The notes under the pieces: generated by a model
The model's database searches: none
What the model was told of the DNA's origin: nothing
Seen by the model: the letters and a program-made list of their open reading frames with translations, nothing else
Translations under genes and position numbers: made by a program
Part shown: piece by piece, positions 44,344 through 51,962 of the stretch
How positions within the stretch are numbered: the stretch's first letter is position 1
Layout: each line of letters opens with the position of its first letter
From: Candidatus Latescibacterota bacterium
GTDB lineage: Bacteria; Latescibacterota; UBA2968; UBA8231
Length of the DNA: 64,000 nt
NCBI GenBank assembly: GCA_965242865.1
Contig: CBDETK010000013.1
Span: 4,352,001-4,416,000, forward strand
Direction of reading: 5' to 3'

Positions 44344-46149
44344 ATGCACTGGGGAAGGGGTGCGCTGTGGTGGGTCGCTTGGGCACTGCCCGCATGCATG
44401 CCGGCCGACTCGCCGGTGGTCGCAGCGATTGGCCCGCATCGCATTGACGCCGACTCACTGCGCGCGTACGTCGAGCAACTTCCCGCCGAAGACCTCGGCT
44501 TGTTGGACGCTGGCCAGCCCCAAGACGCCGCGGCGGTTAGACGCCAGTATCTCCAGCTAATCATCGATCGCTATCTGTTGCAATCGGCGGGCCGCGCTCA
44601 GGAGCTAGCCGCCGCCGAGATCTGCGCTTATTACCAAGACCCGTATCCCGCCGCCCTAGCCGAGGGCGCGCCCGGGGCCTTGTTGGCGAGGTTGCGGCAA
44701 CAGCGCGGCCCTGAGGTGCGCGTCTATCCCGAGCCGCTAGACCGGGCCTTGCCGGATTCACTGCTGGCACGCAAAGCCCGGCAGTGGGGCGTGCTGTTGA
44801 GCCAGCGCGGCCAAGCGTTGCTCAAACAGGGCCGCCACCGCCGGGCCGTTGCCGTGCTGGAGCGAGCGACCGCGCACGCGCCCAGCCGCGCACAAACGCA
44901 TTTCTACCTAGGATTGGCCTACGCCCGCTTGGCCGAGAACGAGCGGGCCGCACCCGCGTTTGAACGCGCCATAGCCCTCGCGCCGGAAGAGGCCGACTTT
45001 CACTACGCACTGGGCACTGCCTTGCAAATGCAGCATCGGTACGAGGACGCGGCCGCTTGTTTTCAGCGGGCCATTGAACAAAGCGCGGACCAGCCCCACT
45101 ACCACTTTCGCCTCGGGGAGGTGCGGCGGTCTTTGGCGGACTTTGACGGGGCGTTGGCCGCATACGACGCAGTGCTCGCATTGCAACCCGACCACGCCCG
45201 AGCCCTGCACCGGCGCAGCGACTTGCTGGCCCGCCGCGGCGATTTGGTTGCGGCCGCCGCCGGGCTTAAAAGGGTCTTGGCCTTGACGCCGGAAAACGCG
45301 GCCGCGCTCGTCGATTTGGCCGGCATCTATACCAAGCAGCAGGATCCCGCCGCGGTCCCTACTTTGGAACGCGCACTCCAGTTAAATCCGGCCGATTACA
45401 GCGTCCATTACCTGCTGAGTTTGGCCTACGCACAAGCGGGGCAACCCGACCAAGCGGCGGCCGCGGCGGCCGAGTTCCAGCGGCTGAGTGCCGCAGACCG
45501 CCACTACAAGGAGGGGCTACGCAATGCCAAGCGCGGCTCTTGGGATCGCGCCACGACGCTGCTGACCCGCGCCGTGGCGGCCAATTCCTCCCATGTGTTG
45601 GCGCACATTCGTTTGGGCATGGTCTATCTGTATCAAGACGAGCCTGCGCGGGGCATCTCAGCCCTCAACCGCGCCCTCGCGCTGGCCCCGCACCACGTGG
45701 AGGTTCACTGCCTGTTGGGCGAGGCGTATGCCGCGAGCGGCCAGCCGGACTCGGCGCGTCATTTCTTTAAGCGAGCGCTGGGCGTGGATTCTACTGCGGT
45801 GCGGGCGCATTACGGCTCGGCCAAGGTGGCGTACCAAGCCGGCGATTTGCCGGCCGCGGTGATCGCCAGCCAACGCGCCTTGGCCAGCGACCCGGACCAC
45901 CGCGACAGCCATTATTTGCTCGGATTGGCGCACCTGCAATTGGGGCAGCCGCGCCAGGCTTGGCGCAGCTTTCAGGCGTGTATTGAGCTCGATCCCGACG
46001 ACGCGGAAGCCCTTTACAGGCAAGGCTCGCTGTTGGTGCGCCACGGTTCAGCGGACGAAGCCGAGCGCGTCTTGGCCCAGGTCTTGCAGCACGATCCCAA
46101 CCACGCGGAGGCGCGACAGCAACTGGCGCGCTTGGAGCGGGAGCCATGA
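44344..46149 (+). CDS. TPR-rich lipoprotein with SurA/PrsA-like N-terminus
   Basis: Lipobox LPAC, VVAAIGPHRI..., more than ten TPR units. Confidence 0.8.
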   Translation: MHWGRGALWWVAWALPACMPADSPVVAAIGPHRIDADSLRAYVEQLPAEDLGLLDAGQPQDAAAVRRQYLQLIIDRYLLQSAGRAQELAAAEICAYYQDPYPAALAEGAPGALLARLRQQRGPEVRVYPEPLDRALPDSLLARKARQWGVLLSQRGQALLKQGRHRRAVAVLERATAHAPSRAQTHFYLGLAYARLAENERAAPAFERAIALAPEEADFHYALGTALQMQHRYEDAAACFQRAIEQSADQPHYHFRLGEVRRSLADFDGALAAYDAVLALQPDHARALHRRSDLLARRGDLVAAAAGLKRVLALTPENAAALVDLAGIYTKQQDPAAVPTLERALQLNPADYSVHYLLSLAYAQAGQPDQAAAAAAEFQRLSAADRHYKEGLRNAKRGSWDRATTLLTRAVAANSSHVLAHIRLGMVYLYQDEPARGISALNRALALAPHHVEVHCLLGEAYAASGQPDSARHFFKRALGVDSTAVRAHYGSAKVAYQAGDLPAAVIASQRALASDPDHRDSHYLLGLAHLQLGQPRQAWRSFQACIELDPDDAEALYRQGSLLVRHGSADEAERVLAQVLQHDPNHAEARQQLARLEREP

Positions 46150-46440
46150 ACGTACCTTGGGTTGAGAGCAATTTAGACTGTAGTGCGTTCCGCCGACCAT
46201 TGTTTTCCCTTGCGCTGGTGATGGGGTGTAGCAATCCTAAATCATTCAGTATGGAGTCAGCCTGCTTGGTTGGTAAATCAGCGGAACCATTGCCGACAAC
46301 ATCCTCGAGCAAGGCATAAGGGCCATGAACCTAGAAGCGTGTCAAGGCCAGGGCGCGGCCCCAACCAATCTCTTGGCGTTTGGTTTCCAAAAGGGCGAAC
46401 AAAAATTCACGAGGCCCAGAAGTCGCTGCTAACTACAAGC

Positions 46441-47427
46441 TCAACTGTCCCTCGGCACGGCCATCATTCGCTCCAACGCCCGCCGCGCCCCCGCAATCAC
46501 TTCGTCGTCTAGCTCGATTTCGTAGCGCTCGTAAAGCAGGGAAAAGTACACGTCTTGCAGGTCGGTGATCTTCATGTACGGGCAGTGTAGCCGGCAGCCA
46601 ATGCAGCCGTCAGCCGCTACGAACTCTTGGTGGGGGAAGCGCTGCCGGAGCTGGTGCAACATGCCGTTTTCCGTGGCGATGATGAAGCTCTTGGCCGCGG
46701 GATACTTTTCTACGGCCTTGAGCATCCCCGTGGTCGAGCACACTTCGTGCGCTATTTCGACCACGTCCTCGCGGCATTCTGGGTGCGCGATGATGACGGC
46801 CTCGGGATAGTCCGTGCGGGTGCGCTCGACGCTGGCGGCGCGCAGCACGTCGTGCGTTGGGCAAGCGCCGTCGTACACGACGATTTCTTTTTCTGGCACC
46901 TGCTCGGCCACCCAGCGGCCCAAGTTGCGATCGGGCGTAAAGAGGATTTTGTCGCTAGCGAGGCTGCGCACCACTGAGACGGCGTTGGCCGAGGTGCAGC
47001 AGATGTCGGACTCGGCCTTCACCTCGGCCGTGGAGTTGACGTACGTCACCACCGCGTGATCGGGATAGTCGGCTTTCCAATCGTCGAGGCTTTCGGGGGT
47101 GATGGAGTCGGCCAGCGAACAGCCCGCGCCCAAATGGGGCAAGAACACCTGCTTGTCCGGGCTGAGGATTTTGGCCGACTCGGCCATGAAATGCACGCCG
47201 CAAAAGACGATGCGCTCGGCATCCGCGTTGGCCGCTTCTACGGACAGCCCGAGCGAATCGCCCGTGAAGTCGGCCAAGTCTTGGATCGGCGGAATCTGGT
47301 AGTTGTGCGCGAGGATGACCGCGTTTTGCTCGCGGCGCAAGCGGTCGATCTGGGCGATGAGCTCCTCGGCCGGCAGGTCGCTGTAGTACTGCCCGGCGGC
47401 TGGGGCGAGCGTCTGTGAGTAGGTCAT
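46441..47427 (-). CDS. nadA: Quinolinate synthase
   Basis: LAHNYQ, GDSL, FCGVHFMAE, YVNS, CTSANA, AHPEC, CPYMK. Confidence 0.96.
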   Translation of the reverse strand: MTYSQTLAPAAGQYYSDLPAEELIAQIDRLRREQNAVILAHNYQIPPIQDLADFTGDSLGLSVEAANADAERIVFCGVHFMAESAKILSPDKQVFLPHLGAGCSLADSITPESLDDWKADYPDHAVVTYVNSTAEVKAESDICCTSANAVSVVRSLASDKILFTPDRNLGRWVAEQVPEKEIVVYDGACPTHDVLRAASVERTRTDYPEAVIIAHPECREDVVEIAHEVCSTTGMLKAVEKYPAAKSFIIATENGMLHQLRQRFPHQEFVAADGCIGCRLHCPYMKITDLQDVYFSLLYERYEIELDDEVIAGARRALERMMAVPRDS

Positions 47428-47633
47428 GGCTTGACTTGCGCTCCTTCGTCGGGGGGGATGGTCTCGGTGCCGTTGGGAAAAACGCGCCAAAACTCCTTGC
47501 GAATGAGGCCGGCGATCATGGCGCTTTTGCTGCTGCCGTGATAGCGGGCAATCGCGTCGAGCATCTCGTGGTCCCGGTCGGGGGCCGAAAAGGTTCGCAC
47601 CTTGGCCCGGCGGCTTTGGTCTTTGGTTGGCAT
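47424..47633 (-). CDS. Small ribbon-helix-helix DNA-binding protein
   Basis: Beta-strand VRTFSA, helix DHEMLDAIARYHG, turn SSKSAMIAGLIR; TGA overlaps nadA ATG. Confidence 0.72.
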   Translation of the reverse strand: MPTKDQSRRAKVRTFSAPDRDHEMLDAIARYHGSSKSAMIAGLIRKEFWRVFPNGTETIPPDEGAQVKP

Positions 47634-47639
47634 GAAATT

Positions 47640-47705
47640 ATTTATATTTTATATAAATTTTAATCAATATATATGTAATCTAACGAATCGCCGCCCGCCC
47701 GTCAA
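47640..47705 (-). promoter_or_regulatory. Sigma70 promoter and palindromic operator of RHH-nadA
   Basis: TTGACG(47705-47700)-N17-TAGATT(47682-47677); inverted repeat ATTTATAT-N3-ATATAAAT at 47640-47658. Confidence 0.7.
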
Positions 47706-47760
47706 TAAAATGTACCCATTTTTTAACGAAATTTTCGCAAGGGAAGGATGGGACTCGGCT

Positions 47761-48987
47761 CTAGAGCTGGCTAATCCGCGCCATGGCCTCTTCGATGCGG
47801 TCGCGGTGATTGAAGGCCGACAGGCGCAAGTACCCCTCGCCAGCCGCGCCAAAACCCGCCCCCGGCGTGCCGACGATGTGGGCCTTGTCGAGCAAGGAGT
47901 CGAAATAGGCCCAGCTGTCCTGCCCGTCGGGCGTGGCCACCCACAAATAGGGAGCGTGCTCGCCCCCATGCACGGTAAGCCCCGCCGCGCCCAACCGCTG
48001 GCGCATGATCGCGGCGTTTTCCATGTAGAACGCCACGCGCTCGGCAATGCCCTGCTGCCCGGCCGGCGAGTACGCGGCGGCCGCCCCGCGCTGCACTGGG
48101 TACGCCACGCCGTTGAACTTGGTCGAGTGACGCCGCGCCCACAGCCGATGCAGGTCTAATTCCTCGCCCGAACCCGCCCGGCCCATGAGTTCCTTTGGCA
48201 CCACAGTGTACCCACAGCGCAGGCCGGTAAAGCCGGCATTCTTGGAAAAACTGCGAAACTCAATGGCGACCTCTCGACCGCCTTCGACCTCGTAGATAGA
48301 GTGCGGGAGCGACGGATCCGTGATGTAGCTCTCGTAGGCCGCGTCAAACAGAATGACCGCCTGTTCCCGCCGAGCGTATTCGATCCAGCGGGCCAAGGCG
48401 TCGCGGGTCATGGCCGCGCCCGTGGGATTGTTGGGCGAGCACAAGTAAATCAGATCGACGTGCTCTGTGGGCAAGTCCGGGATGAAGCCGTTGGCGGCCG
48501 TACACGGCATGTAAATCAAACCGGCGTACGAGCCGTGCGCGTCGGCCGGGCCGGTGCGCCCCGCCATGACATTGGAATCGCAGTACACGGGATAGACCGG
48601 ATCGGTCAACGCAACGACGCAATCACTGGCGAAAATTTCCTGCACATTGCCCGAGTCGCACTTGGACCCGTCGGAGACAAAAATCTCGTCGCAGTGAACC
48701 GATACGCCGCGGGCGTCAAAGTCGTGCTCGGCAATGGCGGCGCGCAAAAATTCTTGGCCTTGGTCCGGCGGATAGCCCTGTAAGGTGTCGTCGTGGGCCA
48801 TTTCCTCGACGGCCTCTTTCATCGCATCGACGATCGGGCGCGGGATGCCCTTGACTACATCGCCGATCCCCAGGCGAATCACATCGGCCTGCGGGTGCGC
48901 GGCCGCAAACGCATCGACCCGGCGGGCGATTTCTGGAAAGAGGTAACCGGCTTTGAGCTTGAGGTAGTGGTCGTTGATATGCGCCAT
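47761..48987 (-). CDS. dapL: LL-diaminopimelate aminotransferase
   Basis: [48 protein letters not shown]. Confidence 0.95.
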
Positions 48988-49055
48988 GGCATTGCTTTCT
49001 TTGTTTGAAGGAATTACAGGATTGACGAGGATAAGAAGGATAAGGAATCCAAACC

Positions 49056-51962
49056 ATGAACGGCAACACGACTGAACCCACCCTCAATACCCATCTCGCC
49101 CAACTCTTGCGGCGCAAGGGCCTTGAAGCAGAAAGCGAGCAACGAGTGCGCGACGCCTCGGGCAGATACCATCAGGTCGATGTCCTCATAGAATTGGACG
49201 CCGACGCCATCGCCTTAGAAGCCGAGTTCGCACCGGCGCGTTCGGTGCGCGATGATGCGAGCAAACGCCTCCAACGAAGCTCGCTATACTGGCGCGGCCT
49301 GCCGGTCACCAGCGCGTTCACTGTGATTTACCCAGAATCCATGCGGCGCATCCCCGAAAGCGACGCGGCCAATGCGCTCGCCAATACCCACGATCTCGCG
49401 TTCGCCCAAGGCACTGGTGCCGATGGCGTCATCCATTGGCGGCCAGCCCAGACGGGCAGCGTCCGCGACTTGGCTGAGACGCTGCACAATTTCTGGGTCC
49501 ACACCAGCCAAGCCGTGAACATTCAAGACATGGTAGATATGGCTTCGCAGGCCATTGCCACGGCCGCCGAAACACTGGCGCGGGCACCGAGCCTGCGGCA
49601 AATCGAGAAAGACAGTGACCCCTCGGCCACCTGTGCCCTGATTTGGCTCAACGCGCTCCTCTTTCAAGAAATTCTCGCGAAAGACTTGCTGCCCGAGGCA
49701 CTCCCAGCACCCCACACTGGCCGCCGCATCCCCCGGCCGCAAACCCATGAGGGATCGGTCGATTTACTGCAACAATGGGACTTGATTCTCTCCATCAACT
49801 GGTATCCGATCTTTGACGTGGCCCGCAAAACACTCGCAGAAGTCCCGTCGCCGTTGGATGTGCAGGCGCTGGGCATTCTCAAGCCGTGCGCTAAGGCCAT
49901 GGCTGAAAACCAAGCCATCCGCCGCCACGATGTTATGGGGCGGATATTTCATCGCTTGTTGGAGAGCCGAAAATACTTGGCGACCAACTATACCACCATA
50001 CCAGCGGCTGTTCTATTGGCCGGCCTCGCTTTTGACGACGATTCTCCATTGTGGGGTGGGGTGAAATGGGATGACGCTGAGCGCTTGGGAAAATTTTTGC
50101 GGATCGTCGATCCGGCTTGCGGTAGCGGTACGCTGCTGATGGCCGCGACCCAAGAGATACTCAAGCGATTGCGGCGAACACAACAGGAGTTGGACGGATC
50201 GTTGAAGGCCGTGCTTGAAAACGCTCTCATCGGCTTTGATGTCGTCCCCGGCGCAGTGCATCTGACCGCTACGACGCTTTCCATGGCTGAAACCCGCCAA
50301 GTATTAAAAGGCATCCCCATCTATCGCATGCCGCACGACGTGAACAACTGCATCGCTCGGCTAGGTAGTTTGGATTTCCTCCGCAAGGCCCCGAACTACA
50401 CAAACGCCCGCTCCGAGAGCTTATTCCCCGATCCAGAACAAGAAGCGGTTCGCGTCACTGGGACCGGAGAGCAGTTGCACGATTCCGAAATGTCATACGA
50501 GTGCGATCTCATCATTTCCAATCCGCCGTACACCCGTGCGGGTGGTCCCGGAAGCAGCGACAACACTAGTTGGAATCCGCTGTTTGGGTCTGTGTTGTCG
50601 AGCAAGGACCAAGAACGCATGAATAAGGCACTACGCAAAACGTTAGATGGCACTCCGGCGAGTTTGTACGCCGGTCTTGGCTCCGCGTTTGTGACGCTAG
50701 CGGATGAGCACTTAAAGATCGGCGGGCGGCTCGCTTTTGTTTTGCCCGCTACCGTCTTGACCGGCAGCCGCTGGTCGCCCATCCGCGAGTTGCTGCTCGA
50801 CCGCTACGATATTGAGTGGGTAATCGTCAGCCACGACGACCGCAACCGGACGGCCCGTGCTAGCCTACCCGGCCGCAGTTATGTCGCCTTCTCGGAATCG
50901 ACTCGCATCGCCGAGACGTTGATCGTCGCCACGCGCCGCAATGATTTAGAAAAGGCCAACGGGTGGACGCGATTTGTCAACCTTCGCCGCATCCCGGATG
51001 AACCCATTGCGGCTATAGGACTTGTACGCGCCCTGCTCACGGATCGCACGGACAACGATCTTCAAGAAGATGTCGAATGTTCGGTGATCGACCTTGCTGG
51101 CGTTGAGTGGGGAGAAATCATCGCCGTGCGTCAGCAAATGTTAGATGCTGGCTCATGGGCACACACGACCTTTATTCAAAGCCAACTTGCGACAACTACC
51201 TTGGATTTCCTACACTCGCAAAAGCTCGGATCGGGTCAGATTCCTCTAACCACCTTGGAAACTATCTGCGACTTAGGTCCTTACCACATGCAGATCAAGA
51301 ATCCAACACACGGTCTATTCGACATCGTTGAAACGGATGATCCAACGAGCATGGGCGAACCGGCCGTGTGGCATCATTCAGAAAAAAAGATGACAACATT
51401 AAAAGCGGCTGCGAATGCAAAGTTGCGACGGAAGAGGGGAAAAAGTCGTGCTGAACAAGACAAAATGCTGGAGCAAGCAAGTCATTTGCAGATCGCGTCA
51501 GAGCTGAGACATGCCCCGCAGAGAGTGGCAGCTATCTATACGGAAGAGCCGATGCTCGGCGTTAGCTCATGGATCAGCTTAAAGATGAAGAATCCACGCG
51601 ATGGTGCAGAAGAGGTGCTATGCCTGTGGCTCAACAGCACCCTCGGTTTATTGCTGCGAATCGTTCACGCGAACCGGCCCTATCTCGGCAGAAGCAGGCT
51701 ACCGCACGAGTTAGGGCGCACGTTGCAGGTTATAGACGCGAATCGTCTGACCGACCAACAGTTACAGATAGGAAAGCAGATTTTCGCTGATTTAGCCGCC
51801 AGTCCGCTCGCTGGTTTCGCCAAGCTAACTTCCGACCCTGTTCGCCGCGAGCTAGACCAGCGAATAATGGCAGACCTGCTAGCGCTTCCCGACGCGGCAA
51901 CCACGGTCGAGCAATTGGCAAAAATGCTGGCGCATGAACCACTACTGACGACTCGCCATTAG
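49056..51962 (+). CDS. Type IIG-like restriction-modification enzyme (nuclease + amino-methyltransferase + TRD in one chain)
   Basis: N-terminal VDVLI...LEAEF nuclease-like motif; motif [12 protein letters not shown]; motif IV NPPY; lower GC than flanks. Confidence 0.8.

Follow-up and report, generated by a model that had tools for sequence, protein, structure and literature searches.

Repressors of bacterial genes for nicotinamide adenine dinucleotide (NAD) supply have been assigned to four types, NadR, NiaR, NrtR and NadQ, which one passage of a 2025 paper (PMC12421817) gives as all the types identified to date; NiaR, according to a passage of PMC2330246, represses nadABC together with a niacin transporter. 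These regulators repress nadA and/or genes for precursor uptake, and they join a helix-turn-helix (HTH) or winged-HTH domain to an effector or enzyme domain (NMNAT/RNK, 3H, Nudix and Nudix-like). The locus described here lies in the genome of a Candidatus Latescibacterota bacterium, within a stretch of 64,000 nucleotides (contig CBDETK010000013.1, positions 4,352,001 to 4,416,000) that is called the window throughout. It comprises a gene for a 69-residue protein resembling the ribbon-helix-helix (RHH) class, here termed rhh, which heads an operon with nadA, the gene for quinolinate synthase, and an array of putative operator boxes spaced at 11 bp between the promoter and the start codon. The role proposed for this protein is that of the four described regulators, but it is RHH-like and carries no second domain, so it does not share their architecture. 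It matches none of the four types as the passage of PMC12421817 lists them, which is what an earlier inspection of the window from its letters (the sequence-only reading) had supposed. Dimers of the 69-residue protein probably coat the phased boxes and repress their own rhh-nadA operon. The family is real, well conserved and apparently undescribed, and would be a new, fifth regulator type for NAD metabolism; a literature search for regulators of nadA or quinolinate synthase that belong to the RHH or CopG class, with supplementary regulon tables outside its range, found nothing relevant.

Among RHH proteins, three described systems come closest. CopG (RepA) of plasmid pMV158 is a small stand-alone protein that represses the operon it heads, copG-repB, with several dimers binding cooperatively on one face of the DNA, and its operator is a single 13-bp element at the -35 box. 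The profile of the 69-residue family finds its best PDB match in CopG, across the strand, helix A and the G-L-SKSA turn; however, the match reaches an E value of only 0.12 and is joined by no Pfam RHH_1 match. The protein further differs from CopG in being chromosomal, in having a biosynthetic enzyme as its target, in carrying an additional near-invariant C-terminal segment of about 20 residues, and in the layout of its putative operator, a set of 8-bp palindromes that recur every 11 bp on the downstream side of the -10 box. MetJ, the methionine repressor of Escherichia coli, is an RHH protein of a biosynthetic pathway whose dimers bind tandem 8-bp boxes cooperatively and which senses S-adenosylmethionine without a separate ligand domain, and it provides the best precedent for metabolite sensing by a 69-residue RHH protein lacking such a domain. 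In contrast to MetJ, the protein described here has no match to the MetJ Pfam family, its palindromic TTANNTAA units recur with an 11-bp period rather than as contiguous 8-bp metboxes, and its regulon appears to be a single operon. Arc and Mnt of phage P22 are small RHH dimers, two of which sit on half-sites about 11 bp apart from centre to centre on one operator face, a spacing that equals the period of the boxes here. Unlike the present protein, which has up to four boxes and a metabolic target, they are phage immunity regulators, and no sequence relationship links them to it.

The rhh-nadA operon and its distribution

All features that the sequence-only reading described lie on the minus strand of the window. 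The gene for the 69-residue protein, a putative autorepressor of an undescribed family, is the first gene of the operon (47424-47633), and its stop codon TGA (47426-47424) overlaps the start codon ATG (47427-47425) of the second gene, nadA, in an ATGA read directly from the sequence (47424-47427). This arrangement, which the sequence-only reading had pointed out, is taken as a sign of translational coupling between rhh and nadA. The nadA gene (46441-47427) encodes a quinolinate synthase of 328 residues, as identified by Pfam NadA (5.3e-118) and NCBIfam NF006878 (412 bits), and in alignments with relatives the match begins at residue 1, encoded by the ATG at 47427.

The same arrangement recurs in other genomes. 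A pattern-based scan that used one genome per species yielded 113 relatives, of which the best 80 were kept as related loci, and nadA lies directly downstream of the RHH gene in 73 of these 80, as determined by tblastn with the NadA of the window. The linkage on which the sequence-only reading had built is conserved across genomes labelled Latescibacterota, Gemmatimonadota, Blastocatellia/Acidobacteria, Planctomycetota, Lambdaproteobacteria and others. In 54 of 72 loci the end of the RHH gene shares 4 nt with the beginning of nadA, and the gap between the two genes falls between -10 and +20 nt in 66 of 72. By comparison, nadC occurs within the locus in 2 of 80 cases and nadB in none. In a survey of the phylum, the protein was found in 74 of 168 genomes, with one copy in each of the 74; by family, it is present in 70 of 75 genomes of the family to which the window belongs, in all three of a second family, and in none of the 89 genomes from the remaining twelve families.

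These neighbourhoods bear on whether the protein could be the RHH antitoxin of a toxin-antitoxin pair, or the repressor of a mobile element or phage that stands beside nadA by chance. Many small RHH proteins are indeed antitoxins, one source labels the homolog P0097 as a DNA-binding phage protein, and PHROGs returned two weak matches of unknown function (E 0.027 and 0.039). Such an origin is nonetheless scarcely credible: no toxin neighbour was seen, and the downstream gene is nadA in 73 loci, an ABC (ATP-binding cassette) importer in 6 and a Smr-domain gene in 1, so the toxins or random neighbours that the sequence-only reading had named as evidence against itself are not the company the gene keeps. 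In addition, all 74 positive genomes carry a single copy, and the synteny is stable, with an aminotransferase gene upstream in loci L002-L024 and many others.

Contigs assembled from RNA libraries of relatives with 90-96% similarity, collected at a 90% likeness cut-off, extend across the boundary between rhh and nadA in four runs, which come from two studies. These contigs, which show neither strand, transcript starts nor expression levels, are compatible with co-transcription of rhh and nadA, not proof of a single transcript. The intergenic stretch 47650-47757 is left uncovered in all four runs, which, given how divergent the relatives are, is uninformative as to where transcription starts. 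Control of nadA by a structured leader RNA such as the NAD+ riboswitch (Rfam nadA motif) finds no support: positions 46000 to 49200 of the window match no Rfam family at E<=1, and no match reached the gathering score in 18 related loci. In the source genome, which measures 5,997,474 bp and is estimated to be 93.6% complete with 6.84% contamination, the 3H domain of NiaR and NadR were not found, and no search was made for NrtR or NadQ.

The 69-residue protein as a predicted RHH dimer

The protein belongs to a family of small, free-standing relatives. In a collection clustered at 90%, 163 short homologs of 37-121 residues were identified, and no precomputed Pfam domain appears among the 120 matches listed; scored without a word index, 37 matching proteins were found among representatives at 50% identity. 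Relatives at the related loci are 64-72 residues long, and fused forms were not found, the sole longer match being P0158, a protein of 148 residues without a Pfam domain that covers 38% of the query. The view of the sequence-only reading that the protein lacks a ligand domain agrees with this absence of Pfam domains and of fused forms. The near-invariant residues of the family include M24, L25, Y31, H32, G33, K36, S37, A38, L43, E47, F48, W49, R50, F52, P53 and G55, and the protein contains no cysteines.

The structural models point to an RHH fold. In the monomer model, which has a mean pLDDT (predicted local distance difference test) of 70.3, two helices (residues 19-32 and 38-51) follow an extended N-terminus, and the N-terminal strand pairs only in the dimer model (contacts 14:14, 14:13 and 15:13). 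The best PDB match of the family profile, CopG (1b01/2cpg), covers the strand, helix A and the G-x-SKSA turn, which in the 69-residue protein reads H32-G33-S34-S35-K36-S37-A38; G33, K36, S37 and A38 are invariant or nearly so and align to the G-L-S-K-S-A of CopG. The RHH family aCcr1 of NCBIfam gives a weak match (E 0.19), and the nearest Atlas clusters with a Pfam family are all of RHH families, with scores of 0.93-0.94.

Prediction of the homodimer gave a score of 0.56, compared with 0.00 for the best of three controls. In calibration, 20 of 30 proteins with solved structures of two copies of one chain attained the mark, as did 1 of 23 with solved single-chain structures; these counts apply only roughly here since the run used a custom alignment. 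Three runs agree in at least 95% of contacts, with a partner pLDDT of at least 70. The confident contacts (14:14, 14:13, 15:13, 40:40 and 43:43) are those expected of a dimer whose B helices cross and whose antiparallel ribbon sits on the dyad. By alignment with CopG, V12, T14 and S16 would face the DNA, and the CopG residues to which they align are presumably the ones that contact bases. The RHH-like character that the sequence-only reading had assigned to the protein is upheld, at the level of models, by the CopG profile match, the helices of the monomer, the dimer prediction and the RHH neighbours in the Atlas. As modelled, the protein would be of RHH type and the founding member of an uncharacterised CopG/Arc/MetJ-type family that forms an intertwined dimer.

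One part of the protein extends beyond this minimal fold. About 20 residues past helix B are near-invariant across phyla (E47, F48, W49, R50, F52, P53 and G55 among them), and W49, R50, P53 and G55 lie outside the confidently placed dimer interface. This conserved aromatic segment could hold a pyridine ligand or make contacts between dimers.

Phased boxes between the promoter and the start codon

Upstream of rhh, the sequence and a promoter scan identify a -35 hexamer TTGACG (47700-47705) and a -10 hexamer TAGATT (47677-47682) with a 17-nt spacer, the promoter that the sequence-only reading had described. This TTGACG-N17-TAGATT is the sole promoter-like match within 46150-47800; shuffles of the region average 0.8 such matches, hence it is not significant alone, and the -35 TTGAC with the 17-nt spacer is found again in most related loci. 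The AT-rich patch that had been noted in a GC-rich genome is also present, with a GC content of 0.33-0.38 across 47600-47749 against 0.606 for the genome.

The conserved element downstream of this promoter is an array of TTANNTAA boxes at an exact spacing of 11 bp. A box scan places four putative operator boxes in the window: box 1, TTACATAT (47671-47678), whose start lies 45 nt ahead of the ATG, shares 2 nt with the end of the -10 hexamer; box 2, TTGATTAA (47660-47667), starts 34 nt before the ATG and is replaced by TTAATTAA in close relatives; box 3, TTATATAA (47649-47656), is a perfect 8-bp palindrome that starts 23 nt before the ATG; and box 4, ATAAATAA (47638-47645), which has one mismatch to TTANNTAA, starts 12 nt before it. 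Together they reach from the final two bases of the -10 hexamer to a point 4 nt short of the ATG, and the leader in which they lie is AT-rich and lacks a Shine-Dalgarno sequence. Among related loci, the array begins about 7-11 nt past the -10 box or overlaps it.

Conservation of the boxes was assessed in 79 of the 80 loci, L032 being dropped for want of a callable start codon: 59 of the 79 carry an exact TTATATAA in the 120 nt upstream, and 68 carry a box with at most one mismatch. For the analysis of spacing, the box was generalised to TTANNTAA with at most one mismatch allowed, and 57 non-redundant loci were used (L002 and L025-L081 minus L032, with L003-L024 dropped as near-copies of L002). 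Box pairs at distances of 11, 22 and 33 bp were observed 59, 26 and 10 times, compared with 1.8, 1.5 and 1.4 in shuffles, and counts at the adjoining distances equal the background. When only exact boxes are counted, 14 pairs are found at 11 bp against 0.01 expected. Furthermore, the box centre varies with a residue of the predicted strand: where residue 12 is V or I, 55 of 85 phased boxes have a central TA, compared with 0 of 14 where it is P (the centres there being AT, AG, AA and others), and the three loci with S at this position have no such phased boxes.

The sequence-only reading had placed the operator elsewhere, in a perfect inverted repeat between the -10 box and the ATG. This repeat (pair I11 of a repeat search, 47640-47658) is present, with arms ATTTATAT (47640-47647) and ATATAAAT (47651-47658) that are 100% complementary and 3 nt apart, and 0 of 100 dinucleotide shuffles of the window yield a matching inverted repeat. 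It is, however, not conserved: the exact ATTTATAT-N3-ATATAAAT occurs in 0 of the 80 related loci and in 1 of 130 loci overall, namely the window's own (L001), and the nearest relative shown (L012) already has one repeat position changed, with A in place of T. Because the exact repeat is confined to the window and absent from relatives, it is best regarded, from this comparison of sequences, as arising incidentally from two adjacent boxes of a larger conserved array, since it takes in parts of boxes 3 and 4, and not as a conserved unit. The earlier proposal of a palindromic operator holds insofar as a conserved predicted operator does lie between promoter and ATG, and gives way as to its identity, which would be the TTANNTAA array phased at 11 bp.

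The boxes also permit a different explanation, in which the small protein is an accessory or chaperone of its downstream partner and the boxes are elements of the promoter, of curvature or of translation, or the site of another factor. Consistent with this, no RHH family matches the protein significantly in sequence, an AT-rich leader that lacks a Shine-Dalgarno sequence would be expected to aid initiation, and a phasing of 11 bp also fits intrinsic bending. The explanation nevertheless seems unlikely, as the boxes travel with the small gene and not with nadA, being present before the importer genes as well, and as they are palindromic, which a dimer on the dyad requires; their centre covaries with the strand residue, and RHH features and a symmetric dimer are predicted for the protein. 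A global factor is unlikely because three phased boxes occur at a single site in the whole 5,997,474-bp genome, the rhh-nadA promoter.

Regulon, signal and importer-linked loci

A local RHH autorepressor of NAD-precursor supply is most likely the best reading of these observations, and we infer that the protein binds the boxes, that it represses, and that its occupancy responds to a signal. Several RHH dimers would line up along one face of the DNA, over the four TTANNTAA boxes at 11-bp intervals. They would occlude the promoter from the -10 box to about +35 and so hinder either formation of the open complex or promoter escape. The bound protein would thereby repress its own two-gene operon, and the repressor would be made in step with NadA, so that repression feeds back on the output of quinolinate synthase; its output is expected to track that of NadA because the two genes overlap by 4 nt.

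Scans of the genome bear on how far this regulation would reach. The 8-mer TTATATAA alone has 29 exact genome sites against about 13 expected and is too common for a regulon scan, and pairs of boxes with at most one mismatch and 10-12 bp apart occur at five genome sites, none of which adjoins an obvious NAD gene. In five further genomes (G001-G005), the totals of double-box matches are 27, 4, 2, 12 and 2, compared with 21, 7, 5, 11 and 2 for a reversed-pattern control, which is not above control; the match with the fewest mismatches is the RHH promoter in G002-G005 and is tied with two other sites in G001. As no sites precede nadB or nadC and these five genomes show no excess of double boxes, the regulon looks like the operon alone. 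The sequence-only reading had proposed a scan for the palindrome before nadB, nadC and pncB; no boxes precede nadB or nadC in this genome. The genome contains two full-length nadB matches that exceed the family cut-off with 530.7 and 534.7 bits (G000:C8:44814-46292 and G000:C13:2342312-2343787). A small contig carries one of the two, and the second copy may be foreign, given the contamination estimate.

Two groups of related sequences were encountered elsewhere in the genome, outside the window. Four near-identical copies, one of them inverted, of a stretch of about 68 nt with TTATATAA at its core lie within about 115 kb (G000:C13 near 379636, 397892, 405576 and 493777); they form a repeat family and are not phased boxes. 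Near-identical AT-rich copies lying 6.5 kb apart (G000:C13:4557227 and 4563723) contain TTTTATAA-N4-TTGTATAA, two box-like 8-mers 12 bp apart.

The loci without nadA extend the picture. In six of the seven (L060, L063, L065, L070, L075 and L076), the RHH gene is followed directly by genes of an ABC importer of the branched-chain type, which encode its Peripla_BP_6 binding protein (at 4189-5376 in L060) and its fused permease, and the 4-nt overlap and the same promoter boxes are kept. The RHH proteins of these loci are identical to nadA-linked ones at 52-56 of 64-65 residues (81-86%). In five importer-linked genomes that were searched, for which completeness was not reported, NadA and nadC were each found in 0 of 5, and nicotinate phosphoribosyltransferase (NAPRTase) and nadD in all five; the eight NAPRTase loci of these genomes have no boxes (0 of 8). 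An ortholog of the binding protein (61-100% identity; loci L113-L129; genomes G006, G190, G199, G211 and others) is present in 17 of 151 genomes sampled from the order Burkholderiales, a tally that includes one unpublished genome, G203, on which no conclusion depends. A NadA match occurs in 0 of these 17 genomes compared with 123 of the 134 others (Fisher's test, 1.8e-15, with kin not independent). This complementary distribution suggests that the importer replaces de novo NAD synthesis, or that it merely marks one clade, and an importer that occurs in this complementary manner to nadA is a candidate NAD-precursor transporter. The RHH gene lies upstream of the importer ortholog in only 2 of the 17 genomes, and others have AA_synth (PF06684) or unrelated genes there. 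The solved structure closest to the binding protein is 3i45 (E 1.5e-145), an entry for which no mention was found in the literature searched, and a literature search for a nicotinate ABC binding protein found nothing fitting.

Several side observations concern the same loci. The AA_synth gene (PF06684, 'Amino acid synthesis') that often precedes the importer where RHH is lacking encodes a protein ending in GGLKAxxIS.xDGQR (L117:863-1477 and L123:665-1456). At L063:5402-6045, two small overlapping open reading frames of 122 and 96 residues lie on the opposite strand between the genes for the binding protein and the permease and look like an inserted gene pair. The seventh locus without nadA, L080 (2044-3584), encodes an RHH homolog of 70 residues without TTANNTAA boxes, with a Smr-domain gene about 200 nt downstream, and this copy may be decayed or re-purposed.

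A number of these results weigh against an RHH autorepressor of NAD-precursor supply. As regards the protein, no Pfam model matches it at E<=1, those for RHH families included, the CopG profile match falls short of significance, and a Foldseek search of the monomer model against the PDB returned two matches, the best at E 9.2 and none usable; the passing dimer prediction may reflect only likeness to solved RHH dimers. As regards the boxes, 11 of 79 loci have none at up to one mismatch to TTATATAA, the AT-richness of the leader could partly serve translation or promoter melting, and the covariation of strand residue and box may reflect only one or two evolutionary events, since the classes are possibly single clades. 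As regards the target, no boxes were found upstream of nadC or of either nadB copy in this genome; because of this, and because nadC is nearby in so few loci, the RHH protein does not control the whole NAD pathway. Importer orthologs elsewhere adjoin AA_synth genes and not NAD genes, and L080 has neither boxes nor a NAD gene.

What the predicted repressor might respond to is less clear than its site. The tentative first choice, at somewhat under even chances, is a small molecule of the pyridine pathway, such as niacin, nicotinic acid mononucleotide (NaMN) or NAD, bound by the aromatic segment EFWRVFPxGT. A doubtful but serious competitor dispenses with an effector altogether: the autorepressor would be a ligand-free dosage homeostat, translated together with its target, that holds the output of NadA or of the importer constant whatever the NAD status. 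In its favour, the relatives have only 64-72 residues and lack a ligand domain, fused forms were not found, 54 of 72 loci show the strict 4-nt coupling, its own operon seems to be the whole regulon, and CopG-type plasmid repressors work in this way. The near-invariant segment past helix B, part of which lies outside the confident interface, suggests in contrast a further function, although this could be cooperativity between dimers, and the module precedes NAD-supply genes rather than random genes. A signal of some other kind has a small chance.

The sequence-only reading had favoured sensing through NadA or its iron-sulfur (Fe-S) status. A signal from NadA or from another protein now appears improbable, and contact with NadA or with its Fe-S state in particular very improbable. 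In favour of such contact, rhh and nadA adjoin each other in 73 of 80 loci and are, by their overlap, translationally coupled, and the conserved residues outside the confident dimer interface could form a site for a partner. The importer, however, is preceded by near-identical proteins with the same tail, boxes and coupling, and none of the five importer-linked genomes tested yielded NadA; in addition, the protein has no cysteines. NadA sensing is disfavoured because the same protein occurs where NadA was not found.

Taken further, the preferred reading of a local autorepressor leads to a broader proposal that should be held as speculative, with the odds rather against it. The protein would represent a fifth family of regulators of NAD supply, one of RHH type, and would sense a pyridine metabolite directly through its aromatic C-terminal segment, in the manner of MetJ and without a ligand domain, and its cassette would have been re-used across phyla, gating nadA in prototrophs and an unrecognised ABC importer of pyridine precursors in Burkholderiales-type genomes without nadA and nadC. 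The regulation of NAD synthesis is unknown in most phyla outside Proteobacteria and Firmicutes, and the family would provide a candidate regulator with a precisely defined putative operator for Latescibacterota, Gemmatimonadota, Blastocatellia, Planctomycetota and some Burkholderiales-type lineages.

Two neighbouring genes complete the description of the window locus. Upstream of rhh on the same strand lies a gene for a class I/II aminotransferase of 408 residues (47761-48987, minus strand; Pfam Aminotran_1_2, 2.1e-33), which is also found upstream in all of L002-L024 and, at 65% identity or more, in 53 of the 80 related loci. Just past it, an open reading frame of 968 residues (49056-51962, plus strand) encodes an NPPY motif, which is typical of amino-methyltransferases of DNA.

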